Shown one piece after another: positions 3,001 to 9,000 of a stretch of DNA of 64,000 nucleotides; positions within the stretch are counted from its first letter, which is position 1, and the number at the start of each line of letters is the position of its first letter. The stretch covers positions 1,280,001 through 1,344,000 of the forward strand of contig OY761614.1 of the NCBI GenBank assembly GCA_963664825.1, given 5' to 3'. The DNA comes from an uncultured Holophaga sp. (GTDB lineage: Bacteria > Acidobacteriota > Holophagae > Holophagales > Holophagaceae). Made by a program: the position numbers.

Positions 3001-6000
3001 GCTGTAGTAGAGCATCTCCAGGCTGGTGGGCCACTGATCCTCGGGAAATGCGTTGAGGCCTTTCACATCGCTGGAGAAGGAGCCGTAGGCGATGAAGCTG
3101 AGGAGTCCGGGCATGCGGATTGGGTTATCCACCTTGCGTTCCGGCACATTGGGCTGGCCGATGAAATTCATGGCGGCGTAAGAGCCACTTTCGAAGCGCC
3201 CTTCCATGGCCGCCAGGGCCACGGGCTGGTGTTTGGCCACCAGCTTGCCCTGGAGATCACCGGTGGGAAATGCCACCAGGAGGGCCGAGACCAGACCCGC
3301 CCAGATGCCGATCTTAAGATTGCGCTTCGCGTGTTCGAGATGGATGCCCTTGAGGGTCCAGTAAGCGCCCACGGCGGCCACCACGAAGGAAGCCGTGACG
3401 ACTGCGCCCATCATGTTGTGGAGGTACTGGGTGGGAGCCCAGGGATTCAGGAGGAACCTCCAGAAACTGGCCAATTGCAGCGTGGCATTCGGGCCAACGG
3501 TGTAACCCACGGGATGCTGCATGAAGGCATCCGTGGCCACGATGAAGTACCCCGAGAGCCAACTGCCCACGAAGAGCGCCACCGCCGCCCAGAAGTGGCG
3601 CCTGGGGCCGAGCCTCTTCTCCCCCCAGATCAGGAGGCCCAGGAAAGTGCTCTCCAGGAAGAAGGCGAACATCCCCTCCATGCCCAGGGTCTGGCCGATG
3701 ACGCCTCCCGAGAAGCGGCTGAAGGAGGCCCAGTTGGTGCCGAACTGGAACTCCAGGGGAATGCCCGTCACCACGCCCACTGCGAAATTGATGCCGAAGA
3801 TGCGGATCCAGAAGCGGGCCAGATCGCCATAGGCTTCATCGCCCGTGCGGTGCGCCACCCATTTCAGGATGACGATGAGGAGCGCCAGGCCCATGGTGAG
3901 CTGGGGGAAGAGGTAATGGTAGGCCGCCGTGAAGCCGAACTGAAGCCGGTGCCAGAAGACTGGGTCGCCCATGGGGACTCCGGGAAATGGTGGGATGCAG
4001 TCGGAGGATATCAGAGGCAGGGACTAAGGCCCATGCGCCATGCAATGATTACGATGCCTCTCGGGAATGCGCCGTTCCCCTTGACTACCTTGAGACAGGC
4101 TGGCCCTGGTGCACCACGCGCTGCGGCATGGCAATCTCGATCCCCTCGGCTCTCAGGGCCAGGAGGTAGCGGCGACGCAGCTCCCGGGCCACTTCCCACT
4201 GCTTCCCGGGCATGGTCTTGGTGAGGGTGCGCACCGTGACCCCGTTGGGGCCGATGGCCTCTACCCCCAGCACCTGGGTGGGTTCCAGCACACGCTCCGG
4301 CCAATCCTGGGCGAGCCCTTCCCCCACCTGGCCCAGCAGGGCCATGACCGCATCGATATCGGTACCGAAGGCCACCTCGATATCCACCTGGGCCCGGGCG
4401 AAATCCTTGGTGAGTACCACGACCTGGGTGATGGAGCCGTTGGGCAGATAGTGGGCCTTCCCCTCGGAATCCCGGATCTGGGTGACCCGCAGGGTCATGC
4501 GCTCCACCGTGCCCGAATGCTGGCCCTCCACGCTGATCACATCTCCCACACCAAACTGGTTTTCCATGAGGAGGAAGAAACCGGCGATCCAGTCCTTGAT
4601 GAGGCTCTGGGCGCCGAAGCCCAGGGCCACCCCCGCCACCCCCGCCCCTGCCAGCAGGGGGCCCACGTTCACACCGAATTCCTGAAGGGTACTCAGAGTA
4701 AAGAAGGCTGCCACCAGGACCCAGGCCAGATGGTTGAGGACCGAGGCCAGCGTATCGGCCCGGCGCTCCGCCTCGCTGGTGACGTCCTCGTTCCCGTCAT
4801 CCACGGCCCTGCGAACGGCCCGCCCGATGAGGCGCACGGCCCAGAGCAGCACGAAGCAGGTGATGAGCACCAGCGCCAGCTTCTGCAGTTTGGCCCAGCC
4901 CACCCGCTCGAACCAGATGGCCAAGGATTCCAACTTGGTGTTGAACAACAGACCCATTGCGACCTCAGTTGAAGGGAAAGCGCTTCGACAAGGATTCCGA
5001 TTGTAGCCGGGAGAGTGGCTCACCCACCGGAAGCAGCCTGAATTTGGTGCCTACAGCCCCTTCAGAACGGCCCTGGCGAAATCCGGCAGGGAGGGATCCC
5101 GGGCGCCCATGATGAGCACCAGGTCCCCTTCTTGAGCTTCCGAAACGAGGCGCTCCACCAGCCACTCCCGGGAGGGTGCGAATTCAGCCAGGGTGCCCTT
5201 TTCACCTATTTCGCACACGATCTCGGCAGACGAGAAATCCCGGTTCGCCGTCCCCCCCGCGTAGTAGATCTCCAGCATCCAGAGCCGGTCCTGGGGCCGC
5301 AATTCGGCCTGGAAGGTCGCCACGAAATCCGGACGCAGGAAGCGCATGGGGGCGTATCCATGGGGCTGGAAGACGGCCAGCACACGCTTGGCGCGCATCT
5401 GGGCGGTGCGGATTGAAGCGGCCACCTTGGCCGGATTGTGGCCGAAATCGTCCACCACCTGTACGCCCCCCTTCGTGCCCAGGACCTGAAACCGCCGCGC
5501 CACGCCTTGGAAGGCCGCCAGAGGAGCCACCATCTCCTGCAAGGGCACTCCCACCGCGGCGCAGGCGGCGAGCGCCGCCAGGGCGTTCTCCACATTGTGT
5601 CTGCCGGGCACGGGGAGACTGAAGGTGATGCCATTCACCCGGAAGGTCGAGCCCTCAGCCTCCAGGACCAGTTCCTCACCCCGCAGCCCCGCTTCCTTGC
5701 CGAATCCGAAGACCGTGGCCCCCGAGGCCAGCTCCGTCAGGTTCTCGGCCTCGCCCACCACGAAGGCCTCCTGGACGCGGCCCCGGAAGATGCGGAACAT
5801 CTCGGCCACCTCGGATTCGGCCTTGTGGTCCTTCTGGAGGTTCAAGACCACGCCCACGGCAGGTTTGTAGCGCACCACCGAACCATCGCTCTCATCGGCC
5901 TCGATGACCAGCAGATCGGAATCCCCCGCCCAGGCGTTGCCCCAGAGACCTTCCCCCTGAAGGGCCACCAGTTCGCCGCCGGTGATGATCGAAGGGCTGC

Positions 6001-9000
6001 GCCCTGCCCCCCGCAGGATTTCAAAGACAAGAGCCGCCGTCGTGGATTTGCCGCTGGTGCCCGTGATGGCCAAGGTGCGATGGGAGGCCACGAGATCGGC
6101 CAGCAGTTCGGAGCGGTGGATGAGCGGCACGCCCAGGCGCCGCGCTTCAGAGAAATCGGGCACTGTATCTTCCACCGCCGTGGAATAGACCACGCCGCTG
6201 CAATCCCCGGCCACGCCGCAGCCATCCTGGGGCAGGATAGAGATGCCCAATTGTGCCAGCCTCCCCCGGGCCGCCGCGTTCTGGCCTCGGTCGAAGGCGC
6301 GATCACTGCCGCTCACGGGCCTCCCCTTCATGGCCCAGAATTGCGCCAGGGCGCTCATGCCGCTGCCGCCCACTCCCGCGAAGTGGAGGCGGCCCGAACC
6401 TGACCCCTCGACCACCACCAGCGCATCACCTTCCCTGGCCAGCCCGAAGAGTTCCACCACATCGGCATTGGCCATGCGCAGGCAGCCGTGGGAGACGGCC
6501 TCCCCCAATCGGTGTTCCTGGTTGGTGCCGTGGATGTAGATGTAGCGCTCCAGCGTGTCGTGATCGGCACCCCGGTTGAGGCCTTCCTCCAGGCCCTCCA
6601 GCGTGAGGACCCGCGTGAGGATCAGGTCCTCCTCCCGGGTTTCGCCCTGCCAGATTTCCCCCGTAGCGATCTGGCTGCGGAAGATCATGCCGCCGGGAGC
6701 GCCCTCTCCAAGCTTGCGATGGATCCTGTGCCAGCCCAGAGGCGTCTGGTACGAGCCCTCCTGATAGCCGAGGCCATTCAGGGCCGTGGAGATGGGGTAG
6801 TCCCCGAGCAGCTCCCCGTGTTCCAGCAGGCCCATGCGCTGCCGCGCCACATCCACCACCAACAGGCGGTTCGGCAGGGCCCGGAAGGGACTTCCGGGTC
6901 TGGAGAGGGCGGCAAGCCCCAGAGATCGGTAGTGGGCGGCGAGAACGGGATTGGCCATGGGTAAGGGTACCGCGGGGAACCCCACCCGGGGACTGCCAGT
7001 GCGCGTCAGCCCATGGAAGCGGTGGGTTGCAATTCCAGATGGGATTGTCCGGTCTCCAGCCCGGGCGCAGCCCCAGGGATGTGAGCCTGGATGAAGGAGA
7101 CAACCTCCGCTGGTTTTATGCCGAGAACAATGGCGAATTCGTCGTACAACAGCTTTTCCGCGGTGGTCATGATCTTGGTATCGGTAGCGTTGAGCCTCTT
7201 ACCCGTCCCCTTTTTGCGGTCCTTCTCGAGGTACAGGGTCTTTATCAACTTCACCAATTCATGGCAATCGCCACTGTGAAGTTTCACGGAATACTCCCGA
7301 TCCCGCTCGCGATCATCACTGATCCAGATGGATTCTTCCTCAGGCATCCCTTGGATCAAACTATTTATTTCGTCCCTGGTCAGGATCGGCCGGATCTTGG
7401 CCACGAGTTCCTCATCGGTTGTGGAGACATAGGTGATCGAATTGGAATCAAAAAAAGGTTTAAGAACATAATATTCTTGTTCCTCGGCGGAACGAAATTT
7501 TTCGGTTCTTATATCCACGATCTTGCATACACCTATCGTATTATACACGACACTGTCATTGATATTAAACATTTTTATCACCAGTGCCTGCCTAAAAGCC
7601 ATGTACTTATGGCAGCAAGCAATCCTCTGTAATCAGTATAGCAAAAATGACTCTTCGCTGTAAGGTTCCAGGACAAACCCTGTGGAACCGATTCCCACTT
7701 GGATGTGGAAGTTGTCCCAACCCTGGCTTCGGAATGACCCTGGAGGGAATGGGGTGGGCATGGGAACTCCTGGGCACGACGAGGGCTTGAACGCCTCACG
7801 GAACAGCGAGTAGGGGTTGCGGGAAGCGATGTGTTTGCATGAAACTATCGGTTAACTCCTGCCAAGCAGCCTTGGGAAAGACTCGCGGCAGCTTAAAAGG
7901 CGCATCTCCTTGACGAACCTATATTCCCAGCGAGGACACCCATGCCCAACGCCATCTTCAATCTGCCGGATTCCTACAACGAACCCGTCCTCACGTACGC
8001 CCCCGGCAGCCCGGAACGTGTGCATCTGAAGGCCGAACTGGATCGCCAATACAATCTCGAAGTGGACATCCCACTCATCATCGGCGGCCAGGAAATCCGC
8101 ACGGGACGCCTCCGGGAGGTGGTCTGTCCCCACGAGCACGGCCACGTGCTGGCCCACTACCACGAGGCCGGAGAAGCCGAAATCCAGATGGCCATCGATG
8201 CCGCCCTCCAGGCCAAGAGCGATTGGGAGGCCATGCCCTGGGAGGACCGGGCCGCCATCTTCCAGCGAATGGCCAGCCTCATCTCCACGAAATACCGCTA
8301 CATCCTCAACGCCGCCACCATGCTCAACCAGTCCAAGAACGCCCACCAGGCGGAGGTCGATTCCACCTGCGAGACGGCGGACTTCTTCCGCTACAACGCC
8401 AAGTACATGGAGCAGATCTACCGGAACCAGCCCTTGTCGAACCCCAATATCTGGAACCGCATGCAGTACCGGGCCCTGGAAGGCTTCGTCTTCGCCGTCA
8501 CCCCCTTCAACTTCACCGCCATCGCCGCCAACCTAGCCACGGCACCGGCCATGATGGGCAATACCATCGTGTGGAAGCCCGCTTCCACAGCTATCCTCTC
8601 CAACTACTACCTGATGCAGCTCTACCGGGAAGCCGGTCTGCCGGATGGAGTCATCAACTTCGTGCCCTCTCGGGGTTCGGTCATCGGTCAGATCGTGATG
8701 GGCCACGAGAGCTTCGCGGGCCTTCACTTCACGGGGTCCACGGAGACCTTCCGCTCCATGTGGAAGACCGCCGGGGAAAACCTGGACCGCTACCGCACCT
8801 ATCCCCGCCTGGTGGGTGAGACCGGCGGCAAGGACTACATCTTCGTCCATAACAGTGCGGAACTCCCGGCGGCGGCCACGGCCATCGTGCGGGGTTCCTT
8901 CGAATACCAGGGGCAGAAGTGCTCGGCCTGCTCCCGGGTCTATGTGCCGGCCTCCACCTGGCCCGAGCTGAAGAGGCTCCTCCTGGAGCTCGTGGGCCAG

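Follow-up and report, generated by a model that had tools for sequence, protein, structure and literature searches.

Does a gene of an uncultured Holophaga sp. that encodes a YkuD domain in front of a Mur ligase specify a route for the re-use of cell-wall peptides on a single polypeptide? An initial annotation had proposed this, reading the protein as a cytoplasmic, ElsL-like LD-carboxypeptidase fused to an Mpl-like murein peptide ligase. Here, we present an analysis of this gene in a 64,000-nucleotide stretch of DNA (contig OY761614.1, positions 1280001-1344000; the window). Feature coordinates count from the first position of the window, and residue numbers refer to the 635-aa fused protein.

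A YkuD domain and a complete Mur ligase in one conserved frame

The locus contains a single long frame (5051..6985, minus strand), in which the fused gene extends on the minus strand over 5051..6958 (635 aa plus stop) from an ATG at 6958 to a stop codon at 5051-5053. Alignment with 49 homologues from M1 onward supports this start; a GTG further upstream in the same frame, at 6985, could also serve as a start but lacks such support. All features described here lie on the minus strand. Residues 4-18 (6904..6949) form a predicted amphipathic helix (AF2 pLDDT 87-94) that is conserved in homologues and is not a signal peptide. The YkuD domain (residues 31-182; 6413..6868) is separated by a Gly/Ser linker that reads VEGSGSG (residues 183-189; 6392..6412) from the three domains of a Mur ligase, i.e., the N-terminal, UDP-MurNAc-binding domain (residues 191-293; 6080..6388; PF01225, 54.6 bits), the middle, ATP domain (residues 298-466; 5561..6067; PF08245, 54 bits; P-loop GTSGKS), and the C-terminal domain for the incoming amino acid or peptide (residues 488-620; 5099..5497; PF02875, 69.1 bits). 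At the linker site, some relatives (G043 and G118) have a longer insert. The YkuD domain and all three ligase domains score above the Pfam cut-offs, and the ligase half has the three domains, the P-loop, and the Mg/ATP residues of the Mur ligase superfamily. Thus, the proposal of a complete three-domain ligase behind a YkuD domain in one 635-aa frame, at this position in the window, is confirmed. For the complete protein, AF2 gives a pLDDT of 92.3 and a pTM of 0.90, a hint that the two halves are held in a fixed arrangement.

The YkuD domain exceeds the PF03734 cut-off (69 versus 23.4 bits) and has the His...SHGC-x-R signature of the family. In an alignment of 50 fused proteins, H143, S156, H157, G158, and C159 never vary, and R161 is almost fully conserved; the catalytic stretch from H143 to S156-H157-G158-C159, with R161 just after, lies at 6482..6532. 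The Ser-His-Gly-Cys motif noted initially is therefore present together with its His and Arg partners. ElsL (NF040925) is the best-matching family for this half (137 bits, 4.7e-40, model positions 8-158 of 164), followed by LdtE at 1.6e-4; the ElsL match is below the curated cut-off of 270 bits, and fused relatives score 115-121 bits against the same model. Foldseek recovered the YkuD fold, the best of its 82 PDB matches (E <= 0.001) being YkuD of B. subtilis (1y7m, E 3.5e-10); among the matches listed, every one named as an enzyme is an L,D-transpeptidase, and two are titled only as YkuD or peptidoglycan-binding protein. We found no N-terminal hydrophobic stretch in the fused protein (maximum Kyte-Doolittle mean over 19 residues of 0.75 in the first 40 residues), and residues 4-18 are modeled as a structured helix, in agreement with the initial annotation, which saw no signal peptide. 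The YkuD half has no predicted signal peptide or membrane anchor, and its fusion to a ligase that depends on ATP and a UDP-sugar means that it must be cytoplasmic. Altogether, the YkuD half is probably an ElsL-like LD-carboxypeptidase, predicted to trim recycled cell-wall peptides.

The spread of the fusion had been left open and can now be described. A gene of the fused type is present in 81 of 96 other Holophagaceae genomes, and the match is single and full-length in 68 of these; family membership was taken from the names on close hits, and here as in the other genome counts below, related genomes are not independent of one another. It was also found in Eisenbacteria, Methyloceanibacter, and Chitinispirillaceae and was absent from the 24 genomes searched in the remaining two families of this class. 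The fusion is, therefore, near-universal in Holophagaceae and missing from the genomes searched in those two families. In databases, 820 clusters (349-1112 aa) match the YkuD part; all of the 120 listed matches have YkuD and Mur ligase domains, a few of them incomplete. At 80 loci with this type of YkuD, 73 genes are one-frame fusions, five are split but adjacent, and two are at a contig end, and the YkuD part was visible without the ligase at none of the 80. We conclude that the fusion is conserved and neither an artefact nor an accident. Cultured bacteria carry it (Geothrix fermentans DSM 14018, Holophaga foetida DSM 6591, Methyloceanibacter methanicus, and M. superfactus) and, therefore, its proposed function is directly testable.

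The ligase half and its clade

MurC is the best family match of the ligase half (TIGR01082; 297.7 bits, model positions 2-440 of 449); the score is below the equivalog cut-off of 335.1 bits. Against the Mpl model (TIGR01081), it reaches 100.7 bits, far below the equivalog cut-off of 388.7 bits. Passages in PMC3060825 describe the motif (S/T)AFFDKRSK as a mark of Mpl. This motif follows the EADEYD box and is present in all three Mpl rows among those listed; it is absent from the ligase half, which reads EADESDGS-VVRY without an insert. In the 50 homologues, G300-T-S-G-K-S305, E353, D355-E356, and D377-H378 are invariant, as are the Gly-rich loop G195..S202 and S218-D219. In phylogenetic trees, the split between the clade of the ligase half and the other ligases has an SH-aLRT support of 96 (IQ-TREE, 56 rows) and FastTree supports of 90 (132 rows) and 98 (69 rows), while the group of characterised Mpl proteins (support 100) falls on the MurC side. 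We, therefore, rejected Mpl by descent for the ligase half based on its score, the missing motif, and its separate clade. As judged from these family models and trees, the ligase half is not a member of the Mpl family, does not pass as MurC, and belongs to a separate, widespread, and hitherto unnamed MurC-like clade.

Residue counts (105 clade, 17 MurC, and nine Mpl rows) place the clearest differences in the C-terminal domain. In an alignment to H. influenzae MurC (HiMurC; 1gqq), the clade signature QPHGYAP (residues 531-537; 5348..5368) spans positions 534 and 537, where G534 and P537 align with R377 and R380. Position 534 is Gly in 102 of 105 clade rows (MurC: R 10, L 4, T 3), and position 537 is Pro in 99 of 105, as opposed to Arg in 17 of 17 MurC and Met in nine of nine Mpl rows. 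According to passages in PMC3060825, HiMurC binds L-Ala through Y346, H348, H376, R377, and R380; their equivalents in the fused protein are F, H, H, G, and P, and the R380 equivalent is Arg in none of the 105 clade rows. By alignment, then, the amino-acid pocket of the clade lacks the two MurC arginines for L-Ala, and a near-invariant Gly and Pro take their place. Elsewhere, position 620 is Arg in 105 of 105 clade rows versus Gly in 17 of 17 MurC rows, and position 302 in the P-loop is Ser in 96 of 105 versus His in 14 of 17 MurC and nine of nine Mpl rows. Short signatures (QPHG.xP, GARD, and GTSGKS) could separate the ligase classes in annotation.

Linkage to LD-carboxypeptidases and a proposed recycling function

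The source genome was searched as a single contig of 3.47 Mb (96.55% complete). Its only YkuD match is the fused gene, its true MurC is encoded at C1:380186-381520 (560 bits), and profile searches gave no Peptidase_S66 (LdcA) and no Mpl above the cut-off. AmpG, AnmK, and a NagZ-sized GH3 protein are present, as are two Amidase_3 genes, and no AmpD-type Amidase_2 was found in the genome. Hence, the recycling inventory on which the initial annotation was built stands in each of its parts (sole YkuD, separate MurC, no LdcA, and the AmpG, AnmK, and NagZ-like proteins).

The clade has a second type of partner. Fusions of its ligase to LdcA form two clusters (P0269 and P0286). Among 29 stand-alone ligase loci, LdcA is the immediate neighbor at five, and a separate ElsL-like gene adjoins at one; no carboxypeptidase neighbor was found at 23 of the 29. 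At L044, L046, and L047, LdcA lies downstream of the ligase and in the same orientation. None of the 31 genomes bearing a clade ligase has Mpl above the cut-off. When these 31 genomes were searched together with eight further Elusimicrobiota, LdcA was found in 19 of the 39, and within the 31 no known ligase could act as its partner. The ElsL-like type occurs in three of the 39 and is in all three either fused to the ligase or next to it; neither carboxypeptidase was found in 17 of the 39. The clade is thus repeatedly linked to two unrelated LD-carboxypeptidases (YkuD and LdcA), and these independent LdcA fusions and operons strengthen the Rosetta-stone logic that had been applied to the Holophaga protein.

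We suggest, with a probability of about 0.6, that the fused protein is a one-chain recycling module that would convert tetrapeptide to tripeptide and then to UDP-MurNAc-tripeptide. As a cytoplasmic two-enzyme chain re-using cell-wall peptides, it would take imported L-Ala-gamma-D-Glu-mDAP-D-Ala, free or still on sugar; the ElsL-like YkuD half would remove the terminal D-Ala using Cys159 and His143, and the ligase half would then join the tripeptide to give UDP-MurNAc-tripeptide. The domain architecture, the conserved catalytic residues, the cytoplasmic setting, the separate clade, and its repeated linkage to LD-carboxypeptidases are shown by the data above, whereas what each half acts on, which half acts first, and any direct hand-over between them are inferred. 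Points that count against the module are the scores below the cut-offs of all three specific curated models (MurC, Mpl, and ElsL), the 23 stand-alone loci with no carboxypeptidase neighbor, the 17 genomes with neither LdcA nor the ElsL-like type, and the lack of an AmpD-type Amidase_2 for releasing the peptide. The initial reading survives in that the fusion is real, contains the only YkuD domain of the genome, and matches ElsL best; it does not survive in its assignment of the ligase to Mpl by descent. An Mpl-like function is proposed because the clade is linked to LD-carboxypeptidases and its pocket is changed.

This proposal has to be weighed against the possibility that the ligase half is a plain MurC and that the YkuD half is an LD-carboxypeptidase sharing only the pathway, with no hand-over of product, comparable to the known MurC-Ddl fusion. 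MurC being the best family match, the MurC-like UDP and ATP motifs, and an EADESDGS box closer to MurC than to Mpl would all fit. Moreover, the clade ligase (311-331 bits) stands alone in 14 of 41 Elusimicrobiota genomes, while the other 27 encode a true MurC but not the clade enzyme; among the 31 genomes behind the loci, six have a single MurC-like ligase, although these are metagenome-assembled genomes that may be incomplete. Where a clade enzyme is the only MurC-like ligase, as in these Elusimicrobiota, MurC activity must come from it; L-Ala is thus probably a further substrate that the clade can use, and the case for an Mpl-like function is weakened. However, it is precisely the sole copies of Elusimicrobiaceae that depart from the signature (QPHA..S), which softens this objection and does not remove it. 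The absence of the R380 equivalent throughout the clade and the presence of a 560-bit MurC in the same genome also speak against a plain MurC, which would not explain why the ligase is repeatedly fused to, or found beside, LD-carboxypeptidases of two unrelated kinds. We, therefore, regard a plain MurC as unlikely.

The two halves could also work in reverse order, with the ligase accepting tri- and tetrapeptides and the YkuD half proofreading UDP-MurNAc-tetrapeptide to the tripeptide form. Passages of PMC3060825 state that Mpl of E. coli and of Psychrobacter uses tetra- and pentapeptides slowly, ElsL also cleaved disaccharide-tetrapeptide according to parts of PMC8649774, and the pTM of the whole-chain model would suit such an arrangement. 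Step order is not readable from sequence, but ElsL and LdcA are described, in the passages that treat them, as acting before ligation, making the reverse order distinctly improbable. YkuD enzymes are able to catalyze exchange reactions. It is, therefore, conceivable that the YkuD half is a cytoplasmic L,D-transpeptidase that swaps residue four of the stem peptide, with the ligase installing the edited peptide, and the fold and catalytic residues are indeed of the L,D-transpeptidase type. However, the carboxypeptidase ElsL matches far better than any Ldt model, MurF could not extend an edited tetrapeptide on UDP-MurNAc, and Pfam shows no extra acceptor-binding domain. We give this reading very little credence.

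The trimming-and-ligation module, if correct, has implications beyond Holophaga. According to passages on Caulobacter (PMC13046382) and Agrobacterium (PMC9790009), bacteria without Mpl and LdcA probably have no direct re-use of stem peptides. In many bacteria without Mpl, the clade may provide the ligase that peptide recycling seemed to lack, and numerous "no Mpl" genomes may thus encode a functional counterpart of Mpl under the label of a second MurC or of an "L,D-transpeptidase family protein". We speculate more broadly, and at somewhat less than even odds, that the clade is a third, widespread UDP-MurNAc ligase class beside MurC and Mpl and fills the gap of a murein-peptide ligase in Bacteroidota, Sphingomonadales, Holophagaceae, Fibrobacterota, Eisenbacteria, and further groups having an LD-carboxypeptidase without Mpl; that the fused form would hold both active sites in a fixed arrangement, such that a single chain trims and ligates the tetrapeptide; and that lineages without MurC, e.g., Elusimicrobiaceae, re-tuned the scaffold to L-Ala through changes in the Gly/Pro signature.

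Relation to ElsL, Mpl, MurC, and LdcA

ElsL (LdtK) of Acinetobacter baumannii is described in passages of PMC8649774 as a cytoplasmic YkuD-family LD-carboxypeptidase. Like ElsL, the YkuD half is a single YkuD domain of ~160-190 aa with a catalytic Cys and no signal peptide, covers nearly the whole ElsL model, and occurs in a genome without LdcA; unlike ElsL, it is covalently joined to a ligase, scores below the ElsL cut-off, and is preceded by an extra helix. The same source reports ElsL orthologues from Proteobacteria and Verrucomicrobia. We place the taxa of the fused type (Holophagaceae, Eisenbacteria, Methyloceanibacter, and Fibrobacterota) outside that range, so that ElsL-type carboxypeptidases would now be represented in additional phyla.

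The ligase half is most similar in sequence to MurC (~35% identity to the MurC of the same genome; 195 bits to PDB 9ir5), with which it shares its UDP and ATP motifs and the order of its domains. It differs from MurC in G569 for an invariant Glu, R620 for an invariant Gly, and a four-residue insert after position 545, as well as in being a paralogue beside a true MurC and below the equivalog cut-off. Like Mpl, it is a three-domain, MurC-related ligase partnered with an LD-carboxypeptidase, and the reaction and pathway position proposed for it are those of Mpl; in contrast to Mpl, it reads QPHGYAP in place of EPRSNTM. The closest parallel in pathway terms is recycling by LdcA and Mpl in E. coli. 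The proposed module would follow the same two-step logic, but with a carboxypeptidase whose YkuD fold is unrelated to LdcA. The natural fusion and the parallel LdcA fusion both tie LD-carboxypeptidation to ligation.

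Architecture and spread of the fused gene

In the window, which begins at contig position 1280001, the gene at positions 5051-6958 (-) consists of 635 codons in a single open frame. Starting instead from an in-frame GTG at 6985 would lengthen the protein by 9 residues; because 49 homologues align from the ATG-encoded M1, we kept the start at 6958. As proposed in the initial annotation, this one gene encodes a YkuD domain and a complete Mur ligase, and all four Pfam domains score over their cut-offs, i.e., YkuD (residues 31-182) and three Mur-ligase domains (residues 191-293, 298-466, and 488-620), with a seven-residue linker (VEGSGSG) between the two halves. 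Judged by hydropathy, the N-terminus is not a signal peptide (maximal 19-residue Kyte-Doolittle mean of 0.75 in the first 40 residues); residues 4-18 form a confident helix in an AlphaFold2 model.

On the same strand lie a CarD-like gene (7006-7602), an MscS channel gene (4085-5023), and cydAB (1587-3972), while an aldehyde dehydrogenase gene and a formiminotransferase-cyclodeaminase gene are on the opposite strand. Among 22 related loci, none has the CarD-like, aldehyde dehydrogenase, or CydA neighbours beside the fused gene, and MscS is found there in only two, both of the same genus. Because no neighbour is kept outside the genus, the fused gene stands as its own unit, and we claim no operon. 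The surrounding DNA has a dip in G+C content (0.51-0.59 at 7000-8000 versus ~0.64 around it) that takes in the CarD-like gene and the intergenic stretch leading up to the aldehyde dehydrogenase gene. The formiminotransferase-cyclodeaminase (9655-11538, +) is complete, with FTCD_N, FTCD, and FTCD_C in a single 627-aa frame, and a thermolysin-type M4 peptidase of 831 aa with a propeptide is encoded at 12752-15247 (-).

The fusion is real and old. When residues 1-190 were scored against proteins of 349-1112 aa, 820 clusters matched; the 120 clusters listed all combine YkuD and Mur-ligase domains, are 57-76% identical over residues 1-190, and include Holophaga foetida, several Geothrix species, and Holophagaceae by name. 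The spread within the host family, which had been left open, can now be given: in a class-wide search of 121 genomes, the host genome included, a fused-type gene was found in 81 of the 96 family members besides the host, as a single near-full-length match in 68 and cut by contig ends or in two pieces in 13. The other 15 family genomes gave a MurC-level match only or none; in the 24 genomes of the two other families of the class, the fused gene was not found and all matches were at the MurC level. Among the 15 is genus g8 (G047, G054, and G082), a case of strong genome reduction inside the host family, with genomes of 0.9-1.2 Mb (84-96% completeness) in which the fused gene was not found.

Scanning a profile of the YkuD part against species-representative genomes yielded 80 loci: 73 one-frame fusions, five with the parts adjacent in different frames, and two cut by contig ends; in none of the 80 was the YkuD part visible without the ligase. 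Going by their record titles, the fused loci come from Acidobacteriota (21, of which 14 Holophagaceae), Eisenbacteria (13), and Pseudomonadota (36, largely Methyloceanibacter, two cultured strains included), and a Chitinispirillaceae MAG has a fused form that is 46% identical. Single fused loci in MAGs labelled Saccharimonadales and Limnocylindria may reflect binning errors. The conservation of the fusion in clusters, family genomes, and loci rules out an assembly or frameshift artefact. At two Methyloceanibacter-like loci (L022:9384-11219 and L025:9389-11179, both on the minus strand), a large periplasmic-type L,D-transpeptidase with Scaffold and YkuD domains comes after the fused gene on the opposite strand; thus, the fusion also occurs in bacteria having L,D-transpeptidases.

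The YkuD half and the recycling genes of the host

The best NCBIfam model for the YkuD half is that of ElsL, an LD-carboxypeptidase of cell-wall recycling (137 bits, E 4.7e-40, model positions 8-158 of 164), followed among YkuD models by LdtE (E 1.6e-4). The likeness to ElsL suggested earlier thus stands, but with 137 bits against a curated cut-off of 270 bits, the YkuD half is ElsL-like and not an ElsL equivalog. Across 50 fused proteins, H143, S156, H157, G158, and C159 are invariant and R161 is nearly so. The His-to-Cys spacing is 16 residues, as in B. subtilis YkuD. The modelled domain has the YkuD fold, with 1y7m as the best PDB match (E 3.5e-10, TM 0.52-0.58); none of the PDB matches listed is titled ElsL. 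The available passages of the ElsL paper describe a cytoplasmic enzyme that cleaves the tetrapeptide selectively, place its orthologues mainly in Proteobacteria and Verrucomicrobia, and make no mention of a natural fusion (PMC8649774).

The host genome (one contig, 3.47 Mb, 96.55% complete) has a single YkuD match, the fused gene, and the claim that this is the only YkuD protein of the genome therefore holds, as does the claim that it lacks a signal peptide. The same is true of the claim that the true MurC lies elsewhere and LdcA is absent: MurC is encoded at 380 kb (560 bits), and no Peptidase_S66 was found in the genome search. MurD, MurE, and MurF are encoded at 2.87 Mb, and Mpl gave no match over its cut-off in this genome. 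For recycling, there are an AmpG (435.8 bits) adjoining ddl, AnmK, and a NagZ-sized GH3 protein; AmpD-type Amidase_2 was not found in the genome, which has two Amidase_3 genes, one located 2.5 kb upstream of that for the GH3 protein. In locus L179 (G000:C1:2469767-2473912), the D-Ala-D-Ala ligase gene is followed immediately, on the same strand, by the AmpG-type permease gene, an arrangement in which a recycling gene is paired with a synthesis gene.

A separate clade of MurC-like ligases

By curated tests of its sequence, the ligase half is neither MurC (297.7 bits; cut-off 335.1) nor Mpl (100.7 bits; cut-off 388.7). Residues 190-635 have many stand-alone relatives of 440-480 aa (40-57% identity), as shown by a full HMMER scan covering 1.84 billion representatives; identity to the host MurC is far lower (35%). 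Among 27 stand-alone relatives scanned, 24 fall below the MurC cut-off and all reach only 84-156 bits on Mpl. In trees with MurC of many phyla, nine gammaproteobacterial Mpl proteins, and the host MurD as outgroup, these ligases, fused or stand-alone, are set apart on one side of a branch (FastTree support of 90 with 132 rows; SH-aLRT of 96 in a quick IQ-TREE analysis with a mixture model and 56 rows, in which SH-aLRT was the only support computed). The Mpl proteins group closely together (support 100) and lie on the MurC side. Thus, the description of the ligase as Mpl-like is not upheld at the level of family.

Because most Bacteroidota MurC score 280-340 bits on the clade profile, we considered that the clade could simply be the Bacteroidota type of MurC. 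Eight Bacteroidota MurC from this sample (six sole copies and the MurC of two genomes that also have a clade ligase; L272 was left out for its wrong long frame) read QPHL[YF][ST]RTR, GAGD, and GTHGKT. When they and Elusimicrobiota were added to the tree (69 rows), the clade was again one side of a branch (FastTree 98). The motifs of these eight proteins and their position on the MurC side led us to reject this reading in favour of a separate clade.

The pocket for the third substrate sets the clade apart from both families. In parts of PMC3060825, HiMurC residues Y346, H348, H376, R377, and R380 are described as surrounding the incoming L-Ala, and (S/T)AFFDKRSK is given as the Mpl hallmark. 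In an alignment to HiMurC, the five positions are occupied in the window protein by F, H, H, G, and P, the last two as G534 and P537 of the clade signature QPHGYAP (residues 531-537), and the Mpl insert is absent. In an alignment of 105 clade, 17 MurC, and 9 Mpl rows, position 302 is S in 96 clade rows, and H in 14 MurC and all Mpl rows; position 534 is G in 102 clade rows, R, L, or T (10, 4, and 3) in MurC, and S in all Mpl rows; and position 537 is P in 99 clade rows, R in all MurC rows, and M in all Mpl rows. Position 569 is G in 104 clade rows and E in all MurC rows, with E (3) and A (2) among the Mpl residues listed, and position 620 is R in every clade row, G in every MurC row, and a gap in all Mpl rows. 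These counts, together with the lack of the Mpl insert, argue that the clade keeps MurC-like UDP and ATP sites, while its third-substrate site is built differently.

Clade ligases are also linked to LD-carboxypeptidases of the LdcA type. In the cluster representative P0269 (742 aa), a clade ligase is followed by both LdcA domains, and P0286 is a second such cluster from another source (84% identical). At 29 stand-alone clade loci, we scanned the two nearest ORFs to either side of the ligase (111 of 173 candidates). In L044, L046, and L047, the next gene downstream in the same orientation is LdcA, and in L045 and L050 LdcA is the neighbour in divergent orientation; at L026, a Fibrobacterota locus, the ligase start is overlapped by a separate ElsL-like gene (183 aa). 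Neighbours are unrelated in the remaining 23 loci; farther off, LdcA is found 2.7 kb from the ligase in L053 and 5.7 kb from it in L048. Other cell-wall or cell-shape genes also occur next to stand-alone clade ligases, namely SLT lytic transglycosylases at two loci and bactofilins at two (L029:8985-10295, L060:5744-6688, L036:7230-7922, and L051:6410-7882). LdcA is present in 19 of 39 clade-bearing genomes (Bacteroidota 9/9, Alphaproteobacteria 7/7, and three others), the ElsL-like type in three of the 39, each time fused or adjacent to the ligase, and canonical Mpl in none of 31 tested.

Substrate of the clade and proposed role of the fused protein

Genomes in which the clade ligase is the sole MurC-like enzyme speak against a pure Mpl-like role of the clade. 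A true MurC accompanies the clade ligase in 22 of the 31 genomes behind the loci; of the nine without one at E 1e-40, a second MurC-like gene is present in three, and the clade ligase stands alone in six. In a sample of 41 Elusimicrobiota genomes (requested completeness of at least 90%), 27 carry a true MurC (517-554 bits) and lack any clade copy, while 14, with genomes of 1.2-1.7 Mb, have a clade ligase only (311-331 bits) and no canonical MurC (G157, G162, G165, G168, G171, G174, G177, G180, G183, G185, G187, G189, G191, and G134; regions L273 and L274 are tied to such sole copies). In these 14, the clade enzyme must therefore make UDP-MurNAc-L-Ala; LdcA was found in none of 12 Elusimicrobiota genomes tested. 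At locus L040, asd and dapB immediately precede the sole Elusimicrobiota clade ligase. It is these sole copies that depart from the signature, with QPHA[HF][AT]S (QPHAFTSVQ) in place of QPHG..P. A typical MurC is also missing from G139, a reduced alphaproteobacterial MAG with two clade ligases (L261, G139:C26; L262, G139:C12), of which one adjoins LdcA and has an intact signature, while the other is a divergent duplicate with QPHTPFSAI and the P-loop GTAGKT. In our reading, these sequences indicate that specificity follows the signature and that the clade scaffold can be turned back to L-Ala. The fused enzyme of the host may likewise have L-Ala activity.

For the fused protein, we propose that turnover products would enter via AmpG, a role suggested by its family; that the YkuD domain, given its likeness to ElsL, would remove D-Ala4; and that the ligase, based on its linkage and pocket, would join the tripeptide to UDP-MurNAc with ATP, after which MurF would complete the pentapeptide. 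Completion of the pentapeptide by MurF is established. In a single chain, every ligase molecule would have its own trimming partner, which fits the toxicity of tetrapeptide ligation in ldcA and elsL mutants, as described in parts of PMC8649774 and PMC13046382. The whole-chain AlphaFold2 model is of very high confidence, at a pLDDT of 92.3 and a pTM of 0.90. Block means for YkuD residues 100-140 are 69, 74, 68, and 51 for the domain alone and 89, 92, 86, and 67 in the whole chain; because the underlying alignments differ in depth (18 versus 50 rows), this gain is only a hint of a possible YkuD/ligase interface.

In public databases, proteins of the fused architecture go under the name 'L,D-transpeptidase family protein' or that of 'UDP-N-acetylmuramate--alanine ligase'. 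Full-text searches of the literature turned up no paper on the fusion or the clade; Data Set S3 of PMC8649774 (ElsL orthologues), which lay outside those searches, could list fused forms. The reaction scheme itself is already known; what would be new, if our reading is correct, is the fusion itself, the occurrence of the ElsL type in further phyla, and a third MurC-like clade that probably serves as the peptide ligase.
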